32,000 nt of DNA from Variovorax sp. PBS-H4 (GCF_901827205.1 NZ_LR594675.1:3173915-3205914); one strand, 5' to 3'; shown: positions 11,157 to 31,834, counted from the stretch's first letter. Notes: generated by a model not told the origin, from the letters alone. A program made the numbers and translations.

Positions 11157-12846
11157 CCCATCCATCCCCGCGCAGGTCACGGTCGGCGCCGTGGTCGCCG
11201 CCTTCCTCGAGCAGTGCAACGTCAAGGCCGCCTTCGGCGTGATCTCGATCCACAACATGCCGATCCTGGACGCCTTCGCGCAGCGCGGGCAGATCCGCTT
11301 CATCTCCGCGCGCGGCGAGGCCGGCGCGGGCAACATGGCCGACGCCTACGCACGCTCCACGGCCAGCCTGGGCGTGTGCGTGACCAGCACCGGCCCGGCT
11401 GCAGGCAACATCGCCGGCAGCATGGTGGAAGCCCTCACCGCCGGGGCCCCCGTGTTGCACATCACCGGCCAGATCGAGACGCCTTACCTGGACAAGGGCA
11501 TGTCCTATATCCACGAGGCCCCGGATCAGCTCGCCATGCTCAAGGCGGTCTCCAAGGCCGCCTTCCGCGTGCGCAGCGTCGACAACGTGCTCGGCACGCT
11601 CAAGCGGGCGGTGCAGGTCGCGCTGACCGCGCCCACCGGCCCGGTCAGCGTGGAGATCCCGATCGACATCCAGTCGGCACTGACCACGATGCCGGCCGAC
11701 CTCTCGCCGCTGCCCATCGAGGCACCCGTGCCTTCGAAGGCCGGGCTCGACGCGCTGGCCGAACGCCTCGCGGCGGCCAGGCGCCCGATACTGTGGGTTG
11801 GTGGCGGAGCACGCCGCGCCGGGGCCGCGATCCAGCGCCTGCAGAAGCTCGGCTTCGGCGTCGTGACCACCACCCAGGGCCGCGGCATCGTGCCCGAGGA
11901 CGACCCGGGCTCGCTCGGCGCCTACAACATCCAGAAGCCCGTCGAGGCCTTCTACCAGACCTGCGACGCGATGCTGGTGGTCGGCTCGCGCCTGCGCGGC
12001 AACGAGACGCTCAAGTACGAGCTGAAGCTGCCGCGCCCGCTGTACCGCATCGATGCCGACGCGGCCGCCGAAGGCCGCTGCTATGCGACCGACGCCTTCG
12101 TCTGCGGCGATGCGGCGCTCGCGCTCGAAGGGCTGGCCGACCGCCTCGAAGCGCTGCAGTACAAGGCTGACGCGGCGCTGCTCGCCGACTTGCGCGCCGC
12201 CCACGAGCAAGCGGTCGCCACGCTGCGCGATGGCCTCGGCCCCTACGCCGAACTCGTGCGCCAGATCCAGTCCGTGGCCGGACGCAACTTCAACTGGGTG
12301 CGCGACGTGACGGTCTCCAACAGCACCTGGGGCAACCGCGAGCTGCGCATCTTCGAGCCGAGCGCGGGTGTCCACGCCACGGGCGGCGGCATCGGCCAGG
12401 GCATGCCCATGGCGATCGGCGCGGCCATCGGCGCGGCGGTCACCGGCTCGGGCCGCAAGACTTTCTGCCTGGCCGGCGACGGCGGCTTCATCCTCAACCT
12501 GGGCGAGCTCGCCTGCATGGTGCAGGAAGAGGCCCCCATGGTGATCGTGCTCATGAACGACAAGAGCTACGGCGTCATCAAGAACATCCAGGACGCACAG
12601 TACGGCGGCCGCCGCTGCTACGCGGAGCTGCACACGCCCGACTACGCGCTCTTGTGCAAGTCGATCGCGCTGCCGCACGCGCGCGTCTCGCGGCTGGAGG
12701 AGCTGAAGGGCCAGCTCGACGAAGCCCTGGCTGCGCGCGGTCCCTTCCTGCTGGAGATCGACATGCTGTCGATCGGCGGCTTCAAGAGCACTTTCGCGGG
12801 CCCGCCGACCAATGCCGTGACGCAGATCCCGGCGTTGGCCAAGTGA
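11149..12846 (+). CDS. Thiamine-diphosphate-dependent enzyme (acetolactate-synthase/benzoylformate-decarboxylase superfamily)
   Basis: 565 aa with a three-domain layout. The Pyr domain reads RGEAGAGNMADAYAR...TSTGPAAGN. The ThDP-binding motif is GDGGF-x23-ND (LAGDGGFILNLGELACMVQEEAPMVIVLMNDKSYG). The ATG overlaps the previous stop by 8 nt. Confidence 0.9.
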   Translation: MHNPSIPAQVTVGAVVAAFLEQCNVKAAFGVISIHNMPILDAFAQRGQIRFISARGEAGAGNMADAYARSTASLGVCVTSTGPAAGNIAGSMVEALTAGAPVLHITGQIETPYLDKGMSYIHEAPDQLAMLKAVSKAAFRVRSVDNVLGTLKRAVQVALTAPTGPVSVEIPIDIQSALTTMPADLSPLPIEAPVPSKAGLDALAERLAAARRPILWVGGGARRAGAAIQRLQKLGFGVVTTTQGRGIVPEDDPGSLGAYNIQKPVEAFYQTCDAMLVVGSRLRGNETLKYELKLPRPLYRIDADAAAEGRCYATDAFVCGDAALALEGLADRLEALQYKADAALLADLRAAHEQAVATLRDGLGPYAELVRQIQSVAGRNFNWVRDVTVSNSTWGNRELRIFEPSAGVHATGGGIGQGMPMAIGAAIGAAVTGSGRKTFCLAGDGGFILNLGELACMVQEEAPMVIVLMNDKSYGVIKNIQDAQYGGRRCYAELHTPDYALLCKSIALPHARVSRLEELKGQLDEALAARGPFLLEIDMLSIGGFKSTFAGPPTNAVTQIPALAK

Positions 12847-20742: not shown

Positions 20743-21849
20743 ATGAAGAAATCCCTTGTGGCCGCGGCCGCATGCGTGGCTGCGGCCGGCGCCTGCGCGC
20801 AATCCTCTTCCGTGCAGGTCTTCGGCATCGTCGATGCTGCCGTCACCTACACCACGGGCTCGGGCTATGGCTCATCCGGCAAATGGCAGCTGACCAACAG
20901 CGGCAACAGCTTCAGCCGGCTTGGCTTTCGGGGCACTGAAGACCTTGGCGGTGGCCTCGCTGCCAGCTTCTGGCTGGAAGCCGGCTTGCAGAACGACAAC
21001 GGCACAGGCTTCAACTCCAACCCCAACAACCAAGCCAGCGGTGCCGCCGGCCCCGGCCTGCTGACTTTCAACCGGCGCTCGACCGTGAGCTTTTCCGGCG
21101 GCTTCGGCGAACTGCGCCTGGGCCGCGACTACACGCCGACTTTCTGGAACACGGCGCTGTACGACCCCTTCGGAACCGGCGGTGGCATCGGCGCCAACCA
21201 GCTCTACTTCTCGGGCCTGGGCGGCCTCACCGCGCCGACCGGCACGCGCGCCTCCAACAGCATCGGCTACTTCCTGCCGCCGAACCTGGGCGGCTTCTAC
21301 GGGCAGGCGATGGTCGCGATGGGCGAGAACGACAACCGCTCGGTGCTGCCGGACACGCTGATCTCCAATCGCCACGACGGCGACTACGCCGGGATTCGGG
21401 TCGGCTACCTGAACGGACCGTTCAACGTGACACTCGCCACCGGCCGGACGCGCTACGCGACGGGCAACCTGCGCGTGTCGAACATCGGTGCTTCCTACGT
21501 CTTCGAGTCGCTGATGAGCCTCAAGCTGATGGGCGAGATCTACAGCGAATCGCTGGGCGCAGTGGACGGGAAGGGCGCGCTGCTGGGCTTCAGCCTGCCG
21601 GTGGGCGTTGGCGAGATCAAGGGTTCGTACGCACGCTACAAGCGCGAGCCGCTGGGCAATGTGCCGGAGCCCACGACCTCGAAGCTCGCGCTGGGCTATG
21701 TCTACAACCTGTCGAAGCGCACGGCGCTGTACGGCACCCTGGCCTACCTGCGCAACCGCAATGGGGCGACGCAGTCGCTCGCCGGTTCGACCACCGCGCC
21801 CAACCGAGCCTCCAGGGGGACGGAGTTCGGCATTCGCCACGCGTTCTGA
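20743..21849 (+). CDS. Outer-membrane porin (Gram-negative general porin, beta-proteobacterial type)
   Basis: 368 aa. The signal peptide ends AGACAQ and the N-terminal strand is SSVQVFGIVDAAVTY. Gly/Tyr/Asn-rich amphipathic beta strands alternate through the sequence. The C-terminus is RGTEFGIRHAF, ending in Phe. Confidence 0.9.
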   Translation: MKKSLVAAAACVAAAGACAQSSSVQVFGIVDAAVTYTTGSGYGSSGKWQLTNSGNSFSRLGFRGTEDLGGGLAASFWLEAGLQNDNGTGFNSNPNNQASGAAGPGLLTFNRRSTVSFSGGFGELRLGRDYTPTFWNTALYDPFGTGGGIGANQLYFSGLGGLTAPTGTRASNSIGYFLPPNLGGFYGQAMVAMGENDNRSVLPDTLISNRHDGDYAGIRVGYLNGPFNVTLATGRTRYATGNLRVSNIGASYVFESLMSLKLMGEIYSESLGAVDGKGALLGFSLPVGVGEIKGSYARYKREPLGNVPEPTTSKLALGYVYNLSKRTALYGTLAYLRNRNGATQSLAGSTTAPNRASRGTEFGIRHAF

Positions 21850-21856
21850 GCGCGCA

Positions 21857-22267
21857 ATGTCGGACCAGCCCCTTCACGGCCATCACAGGGCGAGCGCAGA
21901 GATATCGTCCTCGGAGCGAGATCGAGCCACGCCGTTCTGCGATGCCAGTGCGGGCGGTCAAGTTGTGAGCGGCTGGCTGCTTGATACCAACGTGATCTCC
22001 GAGTTGAGTCGACCGCGCCTCAGCGCGCGGGTCCGAAGATTCATCGCGGGCCAACGGCTCGAGGACCTGTTCGTCAGCACCGTCACTCTGGCCGAGATCC
22101 GCTTCGGCATCGAGGCCGTCGGCGATCCAACGCGCCGCGCCGAACTGAGTGACTGGCTCATCGCTGCAACCGCTCTGCAGCACGGGCAGACCGTTGTGAC
22201 CCGCGATACCGGAGACTACAAGCTCACGCGAGTCCCGGATTTGAATCCGTGGGTCGCCGACTCTTGA
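21857..22267 (+). pseudogene. Degenerate PIN-domain toxin (VapC-like) with internal in-frame deletion and no intact antitoxin
   Basis: The PIN core starts at GTG 21965 (WLLDTNVISEL...VTLAEIRFGIE...RRAELSDWL) and then jumps directly to IAATALQHGQTVVTRDTGDY...LNPW. About 35 aa normally lie between these segments, including the third conserved acidic residue, and they are missing. The 36 upstream in-frame codons (from ATG 21857) have no PIN counterpart. The -1 frame ends ...MPVRAVKL-TGA and overlaps the GTG as GTGA, like the 3' end of a lost vapB. Confidence 0.55.
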
Positions 22268-22350
22268 TGGCTTCGGTCTGCGAGACCAGCCTATTTTCAG
22301 GACAGTAAATTCGCCCTCGCTGCGGGGTTGCCGGCGTGTGTCGCCGGTGC

Positions 22351-23241
22351 CTATCTGCCCTTGCGCGACGCCGTAGACAGGAATGCGGGGATCGTCGGGT
22401 TCTGGTTCTGCGAGTCGTAGGCCAGCGCCACGGGGTAGCGCAGCCTGGCGCGGTTGTGGGTGATCGACATGTACTTCACGCGTGGTATCGCGACACCTTG
22501 CATCGATGCCGGTACCAGTGCAATGCCGACGCCCGCGCTGACGAGCGAGAGCACCGTCAGCATCTGGGGCGCGCTTTGCTCCACATGTGGCAGGAAGCCA
22601 CTGTTGCGGCATGCGGTGACCACGAAGGTCTCGAAGGCCGGGCCCTCGCGCGAACGAAAGCTCACGAAGCCTTCGTGCGACAGCGTCTTCAGCTCGACGC
22701 TCTTCTGCCCCGCGAGCGGATGCGATGCGGGCACGGCCAGCGCCAGGTCTTCGTCCGCGAGCGCGAGCAGCTTGAGGCTGCCGGAACCCGGCAAGGGGGG
22801 CACGACGATGGCGATGTCGATCGAATGGCGCAACAGATCCCGGCTTTGCTGTGAGCTGGCTTCGGCATTGAGCATGATCTTGACGTCGGGATAGTTCTGC
22901 CTGAAGCGCGAGAGCAGCTCAGGCACCAGCTGATAGGCCGCGCTCGGAAAGAACGACAGCCGCAAGGTGCCCAGCATGCCCGCCGCTGCGTGCCGCACCA
23001 GCTCGCGCGACTGCGCGGCCTGCGCGAGCAGCCGTCGCGCTTCGACGAGCAGTGCCGAGCCGGCCGGCGTGAGTGCCACACCCTGCCGGTCTCGCAGGAA
23101 CAACGCGACACCGAGATCTTCCTCGAGCCGCTGAATCGCGATGCTCAGCGGCGGTTGCGACATGTGCAGGCGCTCCGCCGCCCGGCGAAAGTTGAGTTCT
23201 TCCGCGACGGCGATGAACTGCCGCATGCTTCGTAAGTCCAT
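22351..23241 (-). CDS. LysR-family transcriptional regulator
   Basis: 297 aa from the ATG at 23241, with a GGAGAT SD. The N-terminal HTH reads MDLRSMRQFIAVAEELNFRRAAERLHMSQPPLSIAIQRLEEDLGVALFLR. A LysR substrate-binding domain follows. The gene is divergent from the TauD-family gene. Confidence 0.9.
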   Translation of the reverse strand: MDLRSMRQFIAVAEELNFRRAAERLHMSQPPLSIAIQRLEEDLGVALFLRDRQGVALTPAGSALLVEARRLLAQAAQSRELVRHAAAGMLGTLRLSFFPSAAYQLVPELLSRFRQNYPDVKIMLNAEASSQQSRDLLRHSIDIAIVVPPLPGSGSLKLLALADEDLALAVPASHPLAGQKSVELKTLSHEGFVSFRSREGPAFETFVVTACRNSGFLPHVEQSAPQMLTVLSLVSAGVGIALVPASMQGVAIPRVKYMSITHNRARLRYPVALAYDSQNQNPTIPAFLSTASRKGR

Positions 23242-23265
23242 GGGGGATCTCCGGCCGGTCAGCTG

Positions 23266-23280
23266 ATTCGACAATCGAAT
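23266..23280. promoter_or_regulatory. LysR-type T-N11-A palindrome in the divergent intergenic region
   Basis: ATTCG-ACAAT-CGAAT is a perfect 5-bp dyad fitting T-N11-A. It lies 24 nt upstream of the LysR start codon and 77 nt upstream of the TauD-family ATG. Confidence 0.35.
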
Positions 23281-23357
23281 CATGAACCATCCAAATCAGT
23301 ATTGGCTGGATCGGACAAGGCTGCCTACGATTCATTTCAAACAACCCTCGCGACACG

Positions 23358-24206
23358 ATGAACAGCCAGCAGACCCCACTGGAAATCCGCCCCTGCACCC
23401 CGACAATCGGGGCCGAAGTCTCAGGCTTCGACCTCGACCATGTGAGCGACGCCACTGCAGCGCGGTTGCGCGACGCACTGGTTCGCCATGAAGTGCTCTT
23501 CCTGCGCGACCAGAAGCTGACGCCCGCGCAGCACGTGTGCCTCGCCGAGGTCTTCGGCCAGACCCTCGCCGCCAAGTCGATCGTCTTTCCGTCGCCCGAG
23601 GGGTTCCCGGCGATCGAGGTCGTCGAGTACGGCGGCGGGCGCGTGCCGCAGACTGACATCTGGCACACCGACATCATCTGGCAGCAGCGGCCCGCGCTGG
23701 GCGCCGTGCTGTGCGCCGAGGTGTTGCCGGAGACGGGCGGCGACACGCTGTGGGCCAGCATGACTGCGGCGTACGAAGCGCTGTCGCCGCGGATGCAGGC
23801 CTATCTCGAAGGCCTCACGGGCGTGAACACCTGGGAAATCTCGTCACAGAAAAAGGACGCGCTGGCACAGCGCGGCTACGACGGGCTGCTCGCGCTGATG
23901 CAGAAGTACCCGCCGGTCGAGCATCCGATCGTGCGCACGCATCCGGTCTCGGGCAGGAAGATCCTCTACTGCACGCGTTCTTTCACCTCGGAGATCAAGG
24001 AACTGCCCGAAGACGAGGGCCGCGCCGTGCTGGAGTTTCTCTTCGAGCATGTGAAGCGGCCCGAATTCCATGTGCGCTTCCAGTGGCGCGCGGGCTCCGT
24101 CGCGATCTGGGACAACCGCTCGACCCAGCACTACGCCGTCAACGACTACATGCCGAACCGTCGCCGCATGCATCGCGTGGCGGTGGCGGGCGATGTTCCG
24201 TTCTGA
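23358..24206 (+). CDS. TauD/TfdA-family Fe(II)/2-oxoglutarate-dependent dioxygenase
   Basis: 282 aa. It has IGAEVSGFDL, the facial-triad HxD in IWHTDIIW, GGDTLWASM, the distal His in DNRSTQHYAVNDY, and RRMHRV, which is typical of TauD-like enzymes. Confidence 0.9.
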   Translation: MNSQQTPLEIRPCTPTIGAEVSGFDLDHVSDATAARLRDALVRHEVLFLRDQKLTPAQHVCLAEVFGQTLAAKSIVFPSPEGFPAIEVVEYGGGRVPQTDIWHTDIIWQQRPALGAVLCAEVLPETGGDTLWASMTAAYEALSPRMQAYLEGLTGVNTWEISSQKKDALAQRGYDGLLALMQKYPPVEHPIVRTHPVSGRKILYCTRSFTSEIKELPEDEGRAVLEFLFEHVKRPEFHVRFQWRAGSVAIWDNRSTQHYAVNDYMPNRRRMHRVAVAGDVPF

Positions 24207-24242
24207 CCACTTCTCGAGACCCACGATCGAAGCGTACGCACC

Positions 24243-25217
24243 ATGTTCGACAAGTCATTCATCGCCGGGCTCCTGGCCGGCGTCCTTCTCTTGCCGTTCG
24301 GCGCCGGCCTGGCACGCGCCGAGACGCCGACGCGCATCCTGGTCGGCTTCCCGCCGGGCGGCACCACCGACGGCGTTGCCCGTCTTTACAGCGAGGGTTT
24401 GTCGAAGGCGCTGGGCCGTACCGTGCTGGTCGAGAACAAGCCCGGCGCCGGCGGCGCGATCGCGGCGGCGGCGCTCAAGGCCGCGCCGCATGATGCGAGC
24501 ACGCTCATGCTGGCCGCGATCGTGAACATCAGCGTCTATCCGAGCACGGCCAATCCGCCGGCCTACGACCCCTTCAAGGACTTCGTCGCCGTATCGATGG
24601 TCGGACGCTACGACCTGGCGCTGGCCGTCAGCGCGGCGAGCGGCATCGAGACGGTCCCGGCGTACGTCGCCTGGGCCAAGGCCCGCCACGACAAGGCGAA
24701 CTTCGGCTCCCCCGGCAACGGCAGCCTGCCGCATCTCTTCGGTGCTCAGTTTTCACAAGCCGCGGGCCTGGACCTGGTTCACGTGCCTTTCCAGGGCGCG
24801 ACGCCATCGATCGTGAATCTGCTCGGCGGCCAGATCGGCGCCGTGATCCAGCCGGTGAGCGACCTGGTCGCGCAGCATGACGCCGGCAAGGTCCGCATCC
24901 TGGCGACCACCGGTTCGCAGCGCAACGCACGGCTGCCCGGCGTGCCGACCTTCAAGGAGCTCGGCTATCCCGGCATGGAAGGCGGCGGCTGGATCGGCTT
25001 CTTTGCGCCGGCCGGTACGCCCGAAAAGGCGACGCAGGCGATCTGGGAGGCCGTGCAATCCATCCAGGCGACGCCTGCCGTGGTCTCGCGCATGCAGGCT
25101 CTTGGCTTCGACGTGACGCCCATGACCCGTGCCGAGTTCGCCGAGCTGACCCGCAAGGATGCGGCGCGCTGGGGCGATGTCGTGCGCAGCGGCAACATCC
25201 TGGTCAAGACACCATGA
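24243..25217 (+). CDS. Bug-family (TctC-like) substrate-binding protein
   Basis: 324 aa. It has a signal peptide (…LLLPFGAGLARAE) and Bug motifs (ILVGFPPGGTTD, NKPGAGG, NFGSPGNGSLPH, VPFQGATPSIVNLLGGQI). Confidence 0.9.
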   Translation: MFDKSFIAGLLAGVLLLPFGAGLARAETPTRILVGFPPGGTTDGVARLYSEGLSKALGRTVLVENKPGAGGAIAAAALKAAPHDASTLMLAAIVNISVYPSTANPPAYDPFKDFVAVSMVGRYDLALAVSAASGIETVPAYVAWAKARHDKANFGSPGNGSLPHLFGAQFSQAAGLDLVHVPFQGATPSIVNLLGGQIGAVIQPVSDLVAQHDAGKVRILATTGSQRNARLPGVPTFKELGYPGMEGGGWIGFFAPAGTPEKATQAIWEAVQSIQATPAVVSRMQALGFDVTPMTRAEFAELTRKDAARWGDVVRSGNILVKTP

Positions 25218-26707
25218 CCAGCACCGCTGCCACCACCGTAATCACCCTGCATTCGGCGGCCGAATATGCCGGCCTGCTTCGTGCCGTGCCCGAGGGCTCG
25301 ATCTACGTTGACGGGCGCTATGTCGGCGCGCATGACCGGCATCGTGTATTCGCAAAAGCAGACGGTGCATTCATCGCGGAGATCGGATATGCGTCAACCG
25401 GCGATGTGAATGCAGCAGTGGAAGCCGCCGATGCGGCGTTCCCGGCCTGGGCCGCGCGCGCTCCCTCCGACAGGTCGACCATGCTGTCGCGCCTGGCCGA
25501 CGCGCTGGAGAGGCGTTCGCATGAATTCGCCATGCTGGAGGCGCACCATGCCGGCAAGCTCATCACGGATGCCGAGCTCGAGATCCGCTCGGGCGTGCAG
25601 ACTTTGCGATGGTTCGCGAGCTGCGCCCTGCACATCGATGGACGCATGCCCGCGGGAACGCCTGCGCAGCTGCGCTACGTGCGGCGCGAGCCGCTGGGCG
25701 TCTGCAGCCTGATCCTGCCATGGAACTTCCCGTTGCTGCTCATGCTGTGGAAGCTTGGCCCCGCCTTGGCGGCCGGCAACACCGTCGTCGCCAAGCCGGC
25801 GAGCGAAACGCCGCTGACGGCGCTGGCGTTCGGGCTCCTGTGCGACGAGGCCGGCTTGCCGCACGGCGTCTACAACGTGGTGCCGGGCAGCGGACGCGAG
25901 GCCGGCATGGCGCTGGCGACACACGACAGGATTGCGAAGGTGTCCTTCACCGGCTCGACCTCGGTCGGCCTTCAGGTTGCGGCCGCAGCGGCGCGGACCG
26001 TCAAGCGCGTCACGCTCGAACTGGGCGGCAAGTCGCCGAACATCGTGTGCGACGACGCCGATCTGGACCGTGCCGCGGCCGGCATCGCCGGCATCTTCGG
26101 GCATGCCGGGCAAAAGTGCGCCGCGCGCACGCGCTGTTTCGTGCAGGAATCGGTGGCCGACCGGCTGGTTGAAAAGGTCGCCGCACGCGCGAGCGCGCTG
26201 CGCATCGGCGACCCGCTCGATCGAGCTGCCACGCTCGGTCCGGTCATCAACAGCGAGGCACAGGAAACGATCCTCGGCTACTGCCGCTCGGCTACGGAAG
26301 AGGGCGCGCGGCTGGTCTGCGGCGGCAAGGCGCCCGTCGGACGGCGCGGGCCCTACGTCGAGCCCACGGTCTTCGACCATGCACGCAACGACATGACCTT
26401 TGCGCGCGAAGAAATCTTCGGGCCGGTGCTGGCCGTGATTCGCATCAAGGACATCGACGAGGCGATCCTCCTCGCAAACGATTCCGTCTTCGGCCTCGCG
26501 GCTTCAGTGTGGACCGGTTCGTTGTCGAAGGCGCACACCATCGCGGCAAGGCTCGAAGCGGGCAGTGTCTCGGTCAACACGCCCGCGGTGATCGGCATTG
26601 AAACGCCGTTCGGCGGCTACAAGCAGAGCGGGCTCGGGCGCGAACTGGGCGTCGAGGGGCTGGATGCGTATCTGCAGCACAAGAGCGTGATCGTGGACCT
26701 CGGCTGA
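25214..26707 (+). CDS. NAD(P)-dependent aldehyde dehydrogenase
   Basis: 497 aa. The ATG overlaps the Bug stop as ATGA. It has ILPWNFP, FTGSTSVG, LELGGKSPNIV (catalytic Glu), GQKCAARTR (catalytic Cys) and EEIFGPV. Confidence 0.9.
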   Translation: MTSTAATTVITLHSAAEYAGLLRAVPEGSIYVDGRYVGAHDRHRVFAKADGAFIAEIGYASTGDVNAAVEAADAAFPAWAARAPSDRSTMLSRLADALERRSHEFAMLEAHHAGKLITDAELEIRSGVQTLRWFASCALHIDGRMPAGTPAQLRYVRREPLGVCSLILPWNFPLLLMLWKLGPALAAGNTVVAKPASETPLTALAFGLLCDEAGLPHGVYNVVPGSGREAGMALATHDRIAKVSFTGSTSVGLQVAAAAARTVKRVTLELGGKSPNIVCDDADLDRAAAGIAGIFGHAGQKCAARTRCFVQESVADRLVEKVAARASALRIGDPLDRAATLGPVINSEAQETILGYCRSATEEGARLVCGGKAPVGRRGPYVEPTVFDHARNDMTFAREEIFGPVLAVIRIKDIDEAILLANDSVFGLAASVWTGSLSKAHTIAARLEAGSVSVNTPAVIGIETPFGGYKQSGLGRELGVEGLDAYLQHKSVIVDLG

Positions 26708-26775
26708 CGCGAGAGAGGTCTCGGCAGCAGGCCGCGCCGAAAGTCGAAGCGCCGAACCTTCCAGCGCGGTCGCTT

Positions 26776-29499
26776 TCAGGCCACGAACTTGCAGAGCGAC
26801 GCGACGGTGCGCGTGTCCATGTTGCGGCCGCGGTTGAGGTGGTCGTCGATCTCGGCGGCACAGCCCAGCATGCGCGGGTAGAGGAAGATCGTGAACGCGG
26901 CCGTTTCGAGCTCGCGCTCGCCAATCTCCCCGGACTGCAGCGGCTTCCACAGCATCTTGAGCAGCAGCGCGGCGATCACCGCGTCCACGTTCACGCAATA
27001 GACGTTGCGCGACACGCCGGCATCGAAGAGCTGCCGCACCAGCGCACGGTAGAAATCGTGGAACACGTTGTGGTCGCCGCGCGCCTCGCGCAGCCTTGCG
27101 ATGAAGACCTCGCGCGGATCAAGATTGACCGGCTTGTCCTTGAAGACCGGGTGGTTCACGCCCGGCAACTTGGCGATGTCCAGGCTGCCCGCGCTCTTCT
27201 TCCGGGTCTTGTACTGCGCGTATCGGTCCACCGCCTTTGCGGCGAGGGCCTGGAGATCCACGCCGTGGTTCGGGGCGCCCGGGTCGTCGAGGCCGGTGCC
27301 CTTGAACTGCTCGATCAGGTAGGCGATCCCCTCGTAGCCATTGCCGCCGTGGGCATAGCCGGTGTGCGTGAGGAAACCGATCAGCGCCTTGTTGAGCTGC
27401 ACTCGCTCAGGCTGCTCGGGCCCGTCCGCCGACACCGCGCCCTTGGCGCCCTGGGCCGAAATCGCGCCGGGGCCGTTGGTCAGCAACAGGCCGACCAGGG
27501 TCTGGAAGGCGAACAGGTCGGCCTCGGCCGGCGTGCGGCCGAGGAGGGCGGCGAAGGCGACCTCGCCGAGGCTCGCGCTCTCCAGCAACTGCTGCTGCGC
27601 GATGCCGCAGAAGCGGCCTTCCTCATGCCGCGCGGCATCCGCCGAGGCGCCGATCAGCGTGCCGAAGAGCTGCAGCCACCAGGGGAAGTTCTGCGCCGTC
27701 AGCAGCGAGATGCGTTTGCGGGACAGCGGCCCCCAGGCCAGCGTGGCCGAGATCGCGGCCAGCACGGCCGCCTCGGTCGGGTGGCCGGCGAGGCTTTGCA
27801 GCCAGCGCAGGAACACCGAGCGCCCGCCGCGTGCCTGCACGCCGGCCAGCAGGGCCTGGGCACGGCCGTCGGGCGTGTCGCCGGTGAGCGTTGGCGCTCC
27901 GGTCATGTCGATCTGCCCGATATCGAAGCTGTCGCTGAGCGAGGCGCCGAATTCGTTGCCTAGCGCGGCGGCATGGAAGCGTTCGAGCATGAAGCCCAAC
28001 GCCTCGCGGGCCGCCTGCTGCCGCTTCGGCCCGACGATGGCGGCTGCTGCTGCCAGCACCGAGTTGGGCGCATTGCCGGCTTCGCGGCTGGCTTGCGCGG
28101 CCGCGAGTTCAGGGCGGCCGTGCAGGTTGACGTAGGCAGCGATCGCGGGCGCGATGAGTCGCCGGTCGTTGTCCCCGCCGGCATCGTGCAGCAGGGCGAG
28201 TGCCACGTTGGATTCCAGCGGGAGGGTGGCTGCGTCCAGCATGCTGGTGCCGTGCAGGCTGCTGACCTGCGTCTTCGCGTCCATCTGCGAGGCGCCCGAG
28301 GCGTCCTTCATCGCCTGGCGCGGCACCACGCCGCCGATCTGCGTGTTGAGCAGCGCCACCTGCTCGTCGTAGGGTGCGAGCGCCTGTACCACGGGCAGGC
28401 GCAGTTCCTGCGGAAGGTCGAGGCCCTCGTCGGAGCCGAACCACGGCTTGAGCGCCAGCGTGCCTTCGGGCGCGAAGTCCGGCAGGGTCGCGTTCGCGCG
28501 CATCACCGCGGTGAGCGCGGCCGGGATATGGGCGATGTTGGTGACCAGCGCACCCTTGGCTGAGAACACGGGGTTGTCGGGCGTGAAGATCGCGTCGACC
28601 CCGAACTTGTCCATGAACCAGCGTTCCTTGGCCAGCGCATCGTCCGAGCCGCCGGCCATTGCGCCGGCATGACCGACCGCCCGCGTGAGCTTGCTTTTCC
28701 AGCGCCCGACCACGCACGCGACCACCGGCTTGGTGAACTTCGCATCGAGCTCGTAGTAGCCGCCTGGTTCGCAGTAGAGCACCGCCGCCTTGCTGCGTGC
28801 ATCGTTGGCCAGCGCAAAGGCGAATTCGGGCGCGGCGTAGTGGATGTAGACGTCCTTGCCCGACGAGATCACCGTGGTCGTGCCCCAGCCCGCCATGCGC
28901 AGATACTGGGCAATGGTGGTGGAGAAGCCGCCCGAGTTGGAGAAGATCGCGATCGAGCCCGGCCGCAGCGAGTCGCCGGGCTTGTCGCCGCCCAGCGCAC
29001 CGCCGACGCGGACCTGGTTCCACGAGTCGGCCACGCCCAGGCCATTGGCGCCGAAGATGTCGATGCCGTTCTGCTGGCCCATGGCGCGGATCTCGCGTGC
29101 ATCGTGCACCGCGATCTTCTCGGTGATGATGAAGATCTTGCGCAGCTCCGGGTTCACGCGGATCAATTCGGCCACGCCGTCGCGCGCGGCCGATGGCGGC
29201 AGGTACACCACGCCGCAGTTGAAGCGGTGGCCCGCCGCCAGCCCGTCGCGCACGTTGTTGAAGACGGGAATCTCGCCGATGGGCGTCTCGAGCACCGCGC
29301 CGCCCTTGCCGGGCGCGGTGCCGAAGACGACGTTGCCGCCCGAGTAGGCATGGCTCACCGGCGTGACCTCGCTCGACTCGCCGCCCAGGATGTTGAGCAC
29401 GCAGACGCGGTCTTCGCGCGAGGCGACCTGCGTGAGCGAGCTGATGCCGACGTGGTACTTGAAGTCGCCCACGCCTGTCTTCTGCCAGCTGGATTGCAT
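26776..29499 (-). CDS. ATP-citrate-lyase alpha-subunit-like protein, expanded (SucD-like CoA-binding/phosphohistidine half plus two citrate-synthase/citryl-CoA-lyase-like modules)
   Basis: 907 aa from the ATG at 29499, with a GGAAGGAAG SD 17 nt after the upstream gene's stop. The N-half is SucD-like: GTAPGKGG, IITEKIAVHD, IFSNSGGFS, VGHAGAM (His277, nt 28669-28671). The C-terminal module carries YAHGG (His717), GVNHPVF (His783), DPR and VNVD (Asp839), and parallels the ACLY/AclA C-terminal domain. The 220-codon upstream extension in the ORF track overlaps the beta-like gene and is rejected. Confidence 0.85.
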   Translation of the reverse strand: MQSSWQKTGVGDFKYHVGISSLTQVASREDRVCVLNILGGESSEVTPVSHAYSGGNVVFGTAPGKGGAVLETPIGEIPVFNNVRDGLAAGHRFNCGVVYLPPSAARDGVAELIRVNPELRKIFIITEKIAVHDAREIRAMGQQNGIDIFGANGLGVADSWNQVRVGGALGGDKPGDSLRPGSIAIFSNSGGFSTTIAQYLRMAGWGTTTVISSGKDVYIHYAAPEFAFALANDARSKAAVLYCEPGGYYELDAKFTKPVVACVVGRWKSKLTRAVGHAGAMAGGSDDALAKERWFMDKFGVDAIFTPDNPVFSAKGALVTNIAHIPAALTAVMRANATLPDFAPEGTLALKPWFGSDEGLDLPQELRLPVVQALAPYDEQVALLNTQIGGVVPRQAMKDASGASQMDAKTQVSSLHGTSMLDAATLPLESNVALALLHDAGGDNDRRLIAPAIAAYVNLHGRPELAAAQASREAGNAPNSVLAAAAAIVGPKRQQAAREALGFMLERFHAAALGNEFGASLSDSFDIGQIDMTGAPTLTGDTPDGRAQALLAGVQARGGRSVFLRWLQSLAGHPTEAAVLAAISATLAWGPLSRKRISLLTAQNFPWWLQLFGTLIGASADAARHEEGRFCGIAQQQLLESASLGEVAFAALLGRTPAEADLFAFQTLVGLLLTNGPGAISAQGAKGAVSADGPEQPERVQLNKALIGFLTHTGYAHGGNGYEGIAYLIEQFKGTGLDDPGAPNHGVDLQALAAKAVDRYAQYKTRKKSAGSLDIAKLPGVNHPVFKDKPVNLDPREVFIARLREARGDHNVFHDFYRALVRQLFDAGVSRNVYCVNVDAVIAALLLKMLWKPLQSGEIGERELETAAFTIFLYPRMLGCAAEIDDHLNRGRNMDTRTVASLCKFVA

Positions 29500-29516
29500 G
29501 ATGTCTTCCTTCCCTT

Positions 29517-30803
29517 TCAAGCGGCCGCTGCGGCCTGGATGCCAAGGCGCGCCGCGACCTGCTCGCGGCCGCCGTCCTTCATCCACGCGTTGACCTTGCG
29601 GGCGAACTGGATCACCTCGCTCATGTCGGAGTCGAAGCCGAAGAGGCGGTAGGGCAGGCCCAGGGCATCGCAGGTGTCGCGCAGCGCGCCCATGCCGCGC
29701 ACCAGGTTCGGCCCGCCACGGCCCACCACCACGTAGAGAGGCGTTGGTCCATGCTGGCTGAAGTGCTCGCGCAGCGCGTCGGCCATCGCGCGCAGGGTCT
29801 CGAAGATGTCGGTGTTGTTGCTCTTGCCGCCGATGATGAAGAGCACGTTGGCCTGCTTGAGCCAGTGCCTGAAGCAGATGCGCGCCACCTCCTTCATCTT
29901 CTCGTAGGGCGGGTTGCCGCCGAAGTCGGAACTGATGATCGCGTCGTCGCCCAGCATCTCGGTCACCAGCGAGTTGGCGCCACCGCCGAAGGTAGGGGCG
30001 AGCACCGTGCCGTTCTCGTTGATCACGTACACGTCGCTCTGCCCCTGGTGCGTGCGCAGGGTGTTGATCTCTTGCTCGAAGTCCGAGTAGTCGGCCGCGA
30101 ACAGATGGGGCGGCAGACCCAGGCGCAGCCAGCGCGGGTCGTCGCGGTCGAAGCCGCACTTGAAGTCGCAGGCGACCGGCGTGAGCCGGCCCTTCTTGTC
30201 CTCGCGCATGCGGATCGGGTTGAGCTCCAGCGTGGTCATCCCGAAGTCATGGAACAGTTCCCACAGCTTGGGCAACTGCTGGACCAGCGGCGAGATGATC
30301 TCCTTCGGCGCGCCGATCTCGGTGAGCGCGTTCGCCACCACGAAGGCCTTCAGGCCGGTCAGGGGGTCGAAGGGCACCGTCGCGACCTGGGTCTTGTCCA
30401 GCTCCTCGATGTCCATGCCGCCCATGTGCGTGAGCGTCATGGTCGGCGCGCGGAAGCGGGTGGAGTCGCTGATGGAAAAGTAGACCTCGTGCTTGGCCGG
30501 CACGCCGGCCTCGAAGGTCACGCCGTTTGCCTTGGCCTTGACATGGCCGACCGTGTGCTCGGCGAAGTAGAGGCGTTCCTTTTCGGCGAGTGCGGTCTTC
30601 AGGTCGGTGGCCCGGCCCAGCAGGCCGGCCTTGCCCTTCTTGCCGATGCCGCCCTTGAAAACGGGCTTGACGAAGATGAGCCCGTACTTGTCGATCAGCG
30701 CCTTGATTTCCTCTTCGCTGGCCGCGGGGCCCAGCACCTCGGTGGCCGGAAAGCCCGCGAATTGCAGCAGGCGTGCGCCGTGCAACATGCCGGTGATCTG
30801 CAT
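29517..30803 (-). CDS. ATP-citrate-lyase beta-subunit-like protein (ATP-grasp, SucC-related)
   Basis: 428 aa with an AGGAGA SD. It has an ATP-grasp N-half (IFVKPVFKGGIGKKGKAGLL). Its C-half has the ACL-type pattern FGGGANSLVTE, FIIGGKSNNTDIFETL, VVVGRGGPNLVRGM and GLPYRLFG. These parallel the ACLY segments IIGGSIANFTNV, VRRGGPNYQEGL and GIPIHVFG. Confidence 0.85.
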   Translation of the reverse strand: MQITGMLHGARLLQFAGFPATEVLGPAASEEEIKALIDKYGLIFVKPVFKGGIGKKGKAGLLGRATDLKTALAEKERLYFAEHTVGHVKAKANGVTFEAGVPAKHEVYFSISDSTRFRAPTMTLTHMGGMDIEELDKTQVATVPFDPLTGLKAFVVANALTEIGAPKEIISPLVQQLPKLWELFHDFGMTTLELNPIRMREDKKGRLTPVACDFKCGFDRDDPRWLRLGLPPHLFAADYSDFEQEINTLRTHQGQSDVYVINENGTVLAPTFGGGANSLVTEMLGDDAIISSDFGGNPPYEKMKEVARICFRHWLKQANVLFIIGGKSNNTDIFETLRAMADALREHFSQHGPTPLYVVVGRGGPNLVRGMGALRDTCDALGLPYRLFGFDSDMSEVIQFARKVNAWMKDGGREQVAARLGIQAAAAA

Positions 30804-30953
30804 GGTCGATGTCTCCTGTAGTGCGCGAACTGCGCCGTGGGCGGCCCGCGTCTCGGGCGGCCTCGGAGAAATCGTAGGAATCGAAGCTGTCGATCCGCCG
30901 TCAGTGCGCTGAGGGTAAGTACGGGTAGCGAGACTGCCGGCCGCGGCCCGCTA

Positions 30954-31721
30954 CTAGTTCTTGTAGGTCGAGTCGATCCGGTCGAGCCTGCGGATCAACG
31001 CAGGCCAGACGAAGGCCCCGCCCAAGCCACCGGTCTGCACCTTCAGCGCCTGCCCCACGCCTTCGATGATGCGCGGATCGACATGGGTGAGTTCGCCGCC
31101 GCCTGCCTGTGCGGCGATCTGGATCTGGCAGGTGTTTTCGAAGGTGTACATCGACAGGAACGCGTCGGCGATGGTCTTGCCCACGGTCAGCAAGCCATGG
31201 TTGCGCAGCATCAGGAAGTTGGCTTCGCCCATGTCGGCCTGCAGCCGCGGCTTCTCGTCGTCGCGGAAGGCCACGCCCTCGTAGTCGTGGTAGGCCAGCG
31301 AGGCCAGCACGAAGGTGGATTGCTGGCTGATCGGCAGCACGCCGTCTTTTTGCGCGCTGACGGCGATGCCCGCACGCGTGTGGGTGTGCAGCACGCACTG
31401 GATGTCCGGCCGGGCCGCATGGATGGCGCTATGAATGACGAAGCCCGCGGGATTGACGGGGTAGGGCGAGGTGATCACCTTGCTGCAGTCCTGGTCCACC
31501 TTGACCAGGCTCGAGGCGGTGATCTCGTCGAACATCAGCCCGTAGGGATTGATCAGGAAATGGTGATCGGGCCCCGGCACGCGCGCACTGATGTGGGTGA
31601 AGACGAGGTCGCTCCAGCCGTGGAGGGCGACGAGCCGGTAGCAGGCCGCGAGGTCCACGCGCAATTGCCATTCCTCGGCGGAGACGAGCTTCTGGATTTC
31701 GGAATGCGTGGTGGTGTTCAT
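30954..31721 (-). CDS. Class II aldolase/adducin-family protein
   Basis: 255 aa. It has FTHISARVPG, the metal-binding cluster AIHAARPDIQCVLHTHT, and RNHGLLTVG, all typical of the class II (FucA/AraD/adducin-head) fold. It lies 150 nt upstream of the ACL-like pair on the same strand. Confidence 0.9.
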   Translation of the reverse strand: MNTTTHSEIQKLVSAEEWQLRVDLAACYRLVALHGWSDLVFTHISARVPGPDHHFLINPYGLMFDEITASSLVKVDQDCSKVITSPYPVNPAGFVIHSAIHAARPDIQCVLHTHTRAGIAVSAQKDGVLPISQQSTFVLASLAYHDYEGVAFRDDEKPRLQADMGEANFLMLRNHGLLTVGKTIADAFLSMYTFENTCQIQIAAQAGGGELTHVDPRIIEGVGQALKVQTGGLGGAFVWPALIRRLDRIDSTYKN

Positions 31722-31834
31722 GGCGATGCGCGGTCCTGCGCGTTGGATGGCCGAAGGTTGATTGTCAAGATACCGCGGCAGGTTTCAACGCGGGAAAACG
31801 CCGGGTCGACGCTCAAGGTGCGCAGGCGCGGGCG

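Follow-up and report, generated by a model that had tools for sequence, protein, structure and literature searches.

An ATP-citrate lyase (ACL) of a second type has been postulated for Magnetococcus marinus (Mmc1_3638/3639) and for the Riftia/Tevnia endosymbiont (PMC6783814, PMC3522073, PMC6315080). The proposals for Magnetococcus and Endoriftia date from 2009-2011 (PMC3522073, PMC6783814), and one study placed this type II ACL phylogenetically between the Aquificae enzymes citryl-CoA synthetase (CCS) plus citryl-CoA lyase (CCL) and type I ACL (PMC5459899). Here we describe a gene pair of the same kind from Variovorax sp. PBS-H4, located in a 32,000-nucleotide stretch of DNA (NZ_LR594675.1:3173915-3205914) that was analysed over its full length and is called the window in the following. 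Hugler and Sievert are said to have put forward the type II proposal in 2011 for hosts that include 'Ca. Endoriftia persephone', other tubeworm symbionts and Thioflavicoccus. The Variovorax pair has the arrangement by which this enzyme type is recognised, namely a subunit of ~420-430 aa with ATP-grasp and citrate-binding domains, followed by a CoA-binding subunit of ~900 aa. We consider it probable, at roughly 60%, that the two genes encode a heteromeric type II ACL that catabolises tricarboxylates in aerobic heterotrophs. New in this work are the delineation of a large heterotroph clade of this enzyme, the link of this clade to genes for the uptake and utilisation of tricarboxylates, and the explanation of the "insert" in the long alpha subunit as a dead duplicate of the CCL module.

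The architecture of ~425 aa plus ~905 aa, the gene order and the catalytic residues agree with type II ACL, for Magnetococcus Mmc1_3638/3639 as judged by literature description only. In contrast to the type II systems described so far, the hosts of the clade that contains the window pair are aerobic heterotrophs, and the pair is found near tricarboxylate transporters and tcuAB, not near isocitrate dehydrogenase (IDH), aconitase and malate dehydrogenase (MDH). Among solved structures, CcsAB/Ccl of Hydrogenobacter thermophilus gave the best matches for all three functional parts (6hxq_B, 6hxq_A and 6hxp), with 6hxp (Ccl) matching both the C-terminal and the middle module of the large subunit. 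However, the window protein fuses the CcsB-like and the Ccl-like part into one chain and carries the Ccl-like part twice, with one copy predicted to be inactive. Type I AclBA (Chlorobium limicola, 6hxj) and eukaryotic ACLY have the domain logic, the catalytic residues and the citrate-binding residues in common with the window pair; identity in the structural alignments is only 11-16%. AclA, with ~610 aa, has a single CCL module, to which the window protein adds the apparently dead CCL-like module of ~220 aa and a linker, and this protein stays below the Pfam and NCBIfam cut-offs of the ACL-specific models.

With SucCD the pair has the ATP-grasp beta subunit, the CoA-binding/phosphohistidine fold of the alpha subunit and the GHAGA histidine in common, but it contains in addition a citrate-binding domain and two CCL-like modules, and has ~600 extra residues. 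A paralogue of SucCD or of malate-CoA ligase was therefore rejected, on account of these extra domains and of NCBIfam scores that lie far under the equivalog cut-offs (109 versus 336 bits for SucD and 57.5 versus 370 bits for SucC). The citrate lyase CitDEF is a functional analogue only: if the catabolic reading is right, both systems split imported citrate as the opening step of its catabolism and have their genes beside citrate carriers. The proteins and the chemistry of CitDEF are unrelated, since it employs an acyl-carrier prosthetic group, uses no ATP and yields acetate instead of acetyl-CoA; cit operons encode carriers as well.

A preliminary description of this stretch, made from the sequence, had pointed to two tightly coupled minus-strand genes (428 and 907 aa) separated by a 17-nt gap with a strong Shine-Dalgarno sequence, and this is what the sequence contains. 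The motifs listed there were likewise found in place, in the small subunit IIGGKSNNTDI at residue 323, VGRGGPN at 360 and GLPYRLFG at 382, and in the large subunit VGHAGAM at 275 (His277), YAHGG at 715 (His717), GVNHPV at 780 (His783) and VNVD at 836 (Asp839). The mechanical open reading frame (ORF) of the large subunit has 1127 aa and reaches a GTG at 30159. Since the homologues are 906-911 aa long and are covered to 100% when the protein begins at the ATG at 29499, we take this ATG as the start. Of 86 loci, 85 have the small gene immediately upstream of the large one, the gap being roughly 17-140 nt, and this arrangement was also found in L086-L089.

The small subunit was recognised by the Pfam models ATP-grasp_2 (48 bits) and Citrate_bind (56 bits, with a cut-off of 26.8 bits), and Citrate_synth_N was also among the Pfam matches. 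These matches, together with a SucC score far below the cut-off, bear out the earlier view of an ATP-grasp protein whose C-terminal half is ACL-like and which is not a plain SucC. The top match in the PDB was the large subunit of Hydrogenobacter CCS (6hxq_B) with an E value of 3e-31, or 2e-42 when the family profile was used, and the "NNT" citrate loop is common to both proteins. For human ACLY, Sun and colleagues reportedly identified Gly309, Asn346, Thr348 and Arg379 as citrate ligands in 2010. In the alignment these four residues pair with G296, N329, T331 and R362 of the small subunit, and none of the four varies in the family, whether in Variovorax or in Geobacter, Desulfobacter and Nitrospinota.

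In the large subunit, the Pfam domains CoA_binding and Succ_CoA_lig span residues 54-284, and a sequence search of the PDB matched residues 29-295 to the small subunit of CCS (6hxq_A, E 2e-33). Foldseek comparison of the large-subunit model with the same structure gave an E value of 2e-18 and a TM score of 0.80 on the target. When the whole chain was modelled with AlphaFold2 (pLDDT 80), the N-terminus matched the folds of CCS and of the alpha subunit of succinyl-CoA synthetase (SCS), and ~640 columns of the model aligned with Chlorobium AclA (6hxj) and human ACLY. His277 in VGHAGAM aligns with the GHAGA of CCS and SCS and is invariant in 32 diverse family members, as are H717, H783, D839, R796, R876, H887 and R890. 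For the C-terminal module, the family profile of residues 610-907 matched PDB entry 6hxp, the Hydrogenobacter CCL, with an E value of 5e-5. The alignment pairs ..AHGGNG.. with ..aHGGal.., ..NHPVFK.. with ..GHryYk.. and ..VNVDAVIAA.. with ..NVDgaIAA.., and thus His717, His783 and Asp839 correspond to the His/His/Asp triad of citrate synthase. The hidden Markov model comparison proposed earlier for this module also came out as citrate-synthase/CCL-like, with a weak match of residues 631-898 to the NCBIfam citryl-CoA lyase model (E 3e-4) and a match of the C-terminal fragment to PF00285 (E 0.002). Pfam, NCBIfam and the 6hxp profile are therefore in agreement with the suggested fusion of a SucD-like and a citrate-synthase/CCL-like part, the scores of the C-terminal part being weak.

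The middle of the large subunit sets it apart from AclA. Here hhalign aligned the middle region with the C-terminal module over 224 columns (probability 98.3%, E 2.4e-14), and an independent comparison gave the same result. In an AlphaFold2 model of residues 385-628 (pLDDT 81), the top 41 PDB matches were CCL or the CCL modules of ACL and ACLY, followed by citrate synthases; the Foldseek scores were modest, with an E value of 7e-4 and a TM score of ~0.5 against 6hxp. These comparisons identify the extra ~300 aa as a degenerate duplicate of the CCL module and not as a novel domain. The position of His717 is taken by Val489, the loop with His783 is deleted, and Ala577 stands at the position of Asp839. 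Since all three catalytic residues are lost, the middle copy would be catalytically dead. It is also the part of the protein that is least conserved between clades, with 20-25% identity compared to ~42% overall. Its most likely role would be structural, with the dead copy serving the active one as scaffold or partner.

The relationship to the symbiont enzyme could be followed with the type II ACL primers acl2F1 and acl2R1, which were designed for the tubeworm-symbiont gene (taken from PMC3522073). The peptides that they encode, VAKEEWF and NGFEAIA, correspond to LAKERWF (residue 289) and NGYEGIA (residue 720) in the large subunit of the window. An exact-match scan with acl2F1 returned one metagenome contig (L089), which also contains an exact acl2R1 site ~1.3 kb downstream. 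The pair on this contig (423 aa + 905 aa) is 68% identical to the window pair in the small and 58% in the large subunit (906 aa aligned). It is followed by genes for monomeric IDH, aconitase, PntAB and MDH; these surroundings are a gene cluster of the tricarboxylic acid (TCA) cycle or its reductive form (rTCA). The preliminary description was right in seeing here an ACL-like enzyme of two subunits whose alpha subunit is exceptionally long. The window pair passes each of the sequence-level tests applied for the type II ACL family, and it is conserved far beyond what chance would allow.

More distant relatives of ~900 aa, with 41-45% identity, were found in Geobacter metallireducens, Desulfobacter postgatei, D. 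curvatus, D. hydrogenophilus and Nitrospinota, and also in Desulfosarcina, Spirochaetia, KSB1 and others. In the representative search the Geobacter protein (P0123) was the sole useful distant full-length match, the rest being mostly fragments. The Geobacter pair adjoins a phosphoenolpyruvate carboxylase gene and a fumarate-reductase-like operon, and a metabolic model of Geobacter metallireducens includes an ACL (PMC3998878).

Large-subunit homologues with 82-96% identity are present in Variovorax, Cupriavidus necator, Polaromonas, Acidovorax, Ralstonia, Roseateles and others, where the database name is "CoA-binding protein" only. When one genome per species was scanned, relatives turned up in at least 218 species, the closest being Variovorax sp. 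DT-64 (96%). Paraburkholderia, Caballeronia, Methylibium, Rhizobacter and Casimicrobiaceae also have members, as do the alphaproteobacteria Microvirga and Methylobacterium. As judged from the identity matrix, on which the clade relations rest, this heterotroph clade is tight and distinct, with 71-96% identity within it and 57-59% to the symbiont type. The pair is borne on plasmids or chromids in Paraburkholderia, Caballeronia, Microvirga, Skermanella, Sinorhizobium, Gemmobacter, Aminobacter (a conjugative plasmid) and Polymorphobacter. On the 97-kb conjugative plasmid pUSP3 of Aminobacter sp. MSH1 several consecutive oxidoreductase genes precede it, and a CBASS phospholipase gene is adjacent. 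Carriage on pUSP3 shows that the pair is horizontally mobile, which fits the identity of 71-96% across Beta- and Alphaproteobacteria.

The steps of the reaction can be proposed from homology to SCS, CCS, CCL and ACLY. With ATP as donor, the ATP-grasp beta subunit would phosphorylate His277, which sits on the alpha subunit's mobile GHAGA loop, and the phosphoryl group would then pass to citrate bound in the citrate-binding domain of the beta subunit (Gly296, Asn329, Thr331, Arg362), giving citryl phosphate. CoA, held by the N-terminal domain of the alpha subunit, would attack citryl phosphate to form citryl-CoA, which the C-terminal CCL module (His717, His783, Asp839) would cleave into acetyl-CoA and oxaloacetate. 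As to physiology, the gene neighbourhoods suggest that in Variovorax, as in the rest of the beta- and alphaproteobacterial clade, the enzyme works outside the rTCA cycle in the catabolism of imported tricarboxylates. Citrate could enter as such, whereas tricarballylate or aconitate would first have to be converted to it, and the cleavage would consume one ATP.

Since ACL catalyses a reversible reaction, the enzyme might normally run in the opposite direction and form ATP while making citrate (acetyl-CoA + oxaloacetate + ADP + Pi -> citrate + ATP + CoA). ATP-forming citrate synthesis was reportedly proposed by Moller and colleagues in 1987 for Desulfobacter postgatei, an organism in which we found a ~906-aa homologue, and ACL activity in Desulfobacter species is said to have been described in the same year by Moller et al. 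and by Schauder et al. However, the hosts of the present clade are aerobes with ordinary respiration, and the linkage of the pair to tcuAB and to carriers that take up citrate and tricarballylate points to the consumption of citrate, making synthesis of citrate by this enzyme improbable.

The gene neighbourhood provides the main argument for the proposed physiological substrate of the pair. Flanking genes were called with the pair masked and were clustered in 82 non-redundant loci, 74 of which have downstream sequence; the resulting neighbour counts are phylogenetically non-independent. In 37 of these 74 loci the immediate downstream gene on the same strand encodes a tricarboxylate carrier or receptor. 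Five unrelated families are represented: a TcuC-type tricarballylate/citrate symporter (28 loci, NCBIfam 758 bits), a CitMHS citrate symporter (5 loci, NCBIfam 582 bits), a DASS carrier (3 loci), a protein resembling 2-HCT citrate:cation symporters (1 locus, best match but below the NCBIfam cut-off) and TctC (1 locus). TcuA and TcuB (tricarballylate dehydrogenase) are encoded upstream of the pair in several loci. The order in Paraburkholderia and Caballeronia is pair, TcuC, a ModA-like binding protein, DctA and LysR, and in Skermanella the pair is followed by tctCBA. In Gemmobacter the pair is accompanied by a thioesterase gene, convergent tcuBA, genes for a GntR regulator and a PrpF-family isomerase, and tctA. 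The nearest Variovorax relatives (L006-L008) have a gene for a tcuC-type transporter directly downstream. This recurrent linkage, in Alpha- and Betaproteobacteria, to carriers that are not homologous and have the same substrate class suggests that the substrate is citrate or a tricarboxylate that is converted to citrate.

The secreted ModA-like protein of 268 aa always follows the TcuC gene (17 loci; positions 11192-11974 in the Paraburkholderia aromaticivorans locus L090). Its match to the modA model is weak (36 bits in L090, below the cut-off). Yuhara reportedly described in 2015 an aconitate isomerase from the periplasm of Pseudomonas sp. WU-0701, which is said to have a ModA-like fold, and by analogy the protein after TcuC may convert trans- to cis-aconitate.

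Could the heterotroph clade apply the same chemistry to another hydroxy-di- or tricarboxylate, as the preliminary description had suggested? Candidates would be 2-methylcitrate, hydroxycitrate, homocitrate, citramalate or malate. When eight sequences of the heterotroph clade were compared with four rTCA-associated ones, 4 fixed differences were found in the small and 11 in the large subunit, all of them conservative. Four of the substitutions lie near functional loops, namely S328 beside Asn329, Y722 and G724 after His717, and G780 before His783. The middle domain has diverged strongly between the clades (20-25% identity), and carriers of the TcuC type, as the family name implies, also move other tricarboxylates. 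However, the residues aligned to the citrate site of ACLY and CCS and to the CCL triad are unchanged, the substitutions are conservative, and carriers for citrate or tricarboxylates from five unrelated families recur beside the pair together with tcuAB. The product of TcuAB, cis-aconitate, feeds into citrate. The fixed differences thus carry no sign of a changed chemistry, as far as sequences can tell, and a different substrate appears rather unlikely. Citrate is the most likely substrate, and the 15 conservative differences, the unchanged binding and catalytic residues and the carriers and tcuAB nearby shift the balance away from the earlier suggestion.

Several observations weigh against a catabolic type II ACL. 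The evidence for the CCL module is weak when taken piece by piece, with E values of 1e-3 to 1e-5 and a TM score of ~0.5 for the middle domain. The fixed changes beside the active-site loops (A to S328, F to Y722, A to G724 and C to G780) might shift specificity. The pair in the window lacks a tricarboxylate transporter gene behind it, a cassette described below having taken its place, and about half of the related loci, for example in Cupriavidus and Aminobacter, are without an adjacent tricarboxylate transporter. Polaromonas (L003/L026), Ralstonia holmesii (L004/L005), Roseateles (L034) and Polymorphobacter (L094) have loci of a PBP_like_2 type, where several PstS-like paralogues are accompanied by a TonB-dependent receptor and an OmpR-type two-component system, and no tricarboxylate carrier is present; it is a guess that metal-citrate is imported there. 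An aerobe that has both citrate synthase and ACL risks a futile cycle, so that the benefit of an ACL is not obvious. Finally, in the open-access literature we found no purified type II ACL, no enzyme, genetic or expression data for the heterotroph clade and no described function of the pair in heterotrophs. The preliminary description had likewise known of no characterised function for a long-alpha ACL homologue; the ~900-aa architecture itself is not new, having already been proposed as type II ACL.

A further locus type is found in Cupriavidus necator (L001, 12864-16272) and in a locus labelled Ralstonia pickettii (L019). There, genes convergent with the pair encode a Citrate_synt/CCL-like protein and a CoA ligase of the AMP-binding kind, along with a TctC receptor. 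The stand-alone Citrate_synt/CCL-like protein in L001 has 260 aa and matches PF00285 with 83 bits. These genes look like a second, unrelated system of CoA ligase plus lyase for a carboxylate.

Since the ACL contig from the symbiont-type group lies in a TCA/rTCA cluster, the pair might be taken as a mark of cryptic CO2 fixation through the rTCA cycle in these Burkholderiales. We regard this as hardly credible. The 32-kb window contains no 2-oxoglutarate:ferredoxin oxidoreductase and no fumarate reductase, as the preliminary description had noted in calling the setting that of an aerobic heterotroph, and the host is a Variovorax. The hosts of the related loci are aerobic heterotrophs, and their neighbouring genes are for uptake and catabolism. 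Autotrophs among the hosts, such as Cupriavidus necator, use the Calvin-Benson-Bassham cycle. According to its genome paper, C. metallidurans has no rTCA key enzymes (PMC2864759), which likewise counts against this idea.

The neighbours on which the earlier functional hypothesis was built are real: Pfam confirmed the class II aldolase, the aldehyde dehydrogenase, the TauD-type dioxygenase and the Bug/TctC proteins, and found a LysR regulator and a porin as well. The rest of the 32-kb window is a typical mix of catabolic genes. Downstream of the pair, however, a 4.9-kb cassette interrupts the otherwise conserved synteny of Variovorax, and at this place the nearest relatives (L006-L008) have a segment that contains tcuC. 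The break indicates that the catabolic neighbourhood with aldehyde dehydrogenase, TauD and Bug is a strain-specific replacement of the tcuC segment. At the cassette edge a PIN-domain ORF could represent a toxin gene that is degraded or whose start was misassigned.

On the other side, the aldolase gene lies 150 nt upstream of the pair on the same strand, and its product might form a Variovorax-specific pathway with the pair, for example by cleaving or decarboxylating the CoA-ester product or a precursor. In 7 related loci from Variovorax the two are likewise neighbours, a consensus scan found no terminator between the aldolase gene and the pair, and a promoter-like site precedes the aldolase gene, so that read-through or co-transcription from there would be possible. 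However, a class II aldolase is found within six genes of the pair in 8 of 82 loci, all from Variovorax, and directly adjacent in the window and its 7 close relatives; 74 of the 82 loci have no aldolase within 10 kb, and in other Variovorax it is encoded several kb away with genes intervening. Neither the aldolase partnership nor the links to aldehyde dehydrogenase, TauD and Bug are kept across relatives, as the comparison of neighbourhoods suggested in the preliminary description turned out. In addition, the 150-nt gap holds an upstream element that the pair also has beside unrelated upstream genes. A joint pathway with the aldolase is thus very unlikely.

This element, ATCGACAGCTTCGAT, has an exact match in the gap between the aldolase and the small-subunit gene, where 0.04 matches would be expected by chance in the window. 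When up to three mismatches are allowed, 25 of 76 loci carry it on the same strand, 60-104 nt before the start codon, and 27 have it anywhere within the 250-nt upstream stretch, the background being 0.02 per 250 nt. Loci that carry it include some in which the upstream genes are unrelated or divergent. Its retention there suggests that the pair is a regulated unit of its own, and as judged from its conservation the element is a candidate promoter or operator. A copy with one mismatch inside the large gene (27922-27936, minus strand) was rejected as a regulatory site because the sequence there codes for a conserved peptide, SDSFD; other loci have comparable look-alikes within the coding sequence at residue 146, and this copy is most likely a coding coincidence. 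A GG..GC spacing reminiscent of sigma-54 promoters, seen by eye in the upstream block, matches the consensus poorly and is not claimed. The features of the window are listed in Table 1.

Table 1. Positions of the ACL gene pair, its domains and the surrounding features, counted from the first nucleotide of the window.
Feature	Position	Strand	Description
Small (beta, AclB/CcsA-like) subunit gene	29517..30803	-	428 aa; ATP-grasp domain and citrate-binding domain
Large (alpha) subunit gene	26776..29499	-	907 aa; SucD-like part joined to CCL-like part
Intergenic spacer between the subunit genes	29500..29516	-	17 nt, AAGGGAAGGAAGACATC; contains purine-rich Shine-Dalgarno-like AAGGGAAGGAAG
CoA-binding and phosphohistidine domain (SucD/CcsB-like), residues 1-~340	28480..29499	-	Pfam CoA_binding, Succ_CoA_lig; 6hxq_A
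His277 codon (GHAGA loop)	28669-28671	-	predicted phosphohistidine
Middle degenerate CCL duplicate, residues ~402-620	27640..28296	-	hhalign; Foldseek of AlphaFold2 model
Predicted catalytic CCL (citrate-synthase-like) module, residues ~621-907 and stop	26776..27639	-	His717, His783, Asp839
Conserved upstream element ATCGACAGCTTCGAT	30880..30894	-	5-bp inverted repeat ATCGA..TCGAT; located 77-91 nt upstream of the start codon of the small-subunit gene
Class II aldolase-family gene	30954-31721	-	NCBIfam PRK07044, 395 bits; uncharacterised subfamily, relatives include decarboxylases and dehydratases
Sigma-70-like site	31761-31788		just upstream of the aldolase gene
Strain-specific cassette	21855-26774		4.9 kb; PIN-domain ORF, LysR, TauD-family dioxygenase, TctC/Bug, aldehyde dehydrogenase
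PIN (VapC-like) ORF	21608-22267	+	Pfam E 4e-10, two matched stretches from residue 124; long arginine-rich N-terminal extension

Taken one step further, the large, tightly conserved and partly plasmid-borne type II ACL clade of aerobic Beta- and Alphaproteobacteria might be a dedicated catabolic ACL, in which the dead CCL copy forms an intramolecular pseudo-dimer resembling citrate synthase; we hold this combined picture tentatively and give it slightly less than even odds. If true, it would represent an unrecognised aerobic entry route, by which exogenous citrate, tricarballylate and aconitate are led directly to acetyl-CoA and oxaloacetate, and the pseudo-dimer would replace the homo-oligomeric CCL core of classical ACL. 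The presence of a dead CCL duplicate would also bear on the evolution of the ACL and citrate synthase core by fusion and duplication.

In surveys of genomes and metagenomes, ACL genes are taken as markers of the rTCA cycle. Since close type II homologues with conserved catalytic residues are present in at least 218 species, among them many Burkholderiales, rhizobia and further aerobic heterotrophs, such a marker can mislead, and type II ACL genes would be unreliable as an rTCA marker in metagenomes. At the same time, an apparently widespread route for the use of citrate and other tricarboxylates in soil and rhizosphere bacteria would be going unannotated. With Variovorax, Cupriavidus necator and Paraburkholderia, type II ACL would gain hosts that are genetically tractable.

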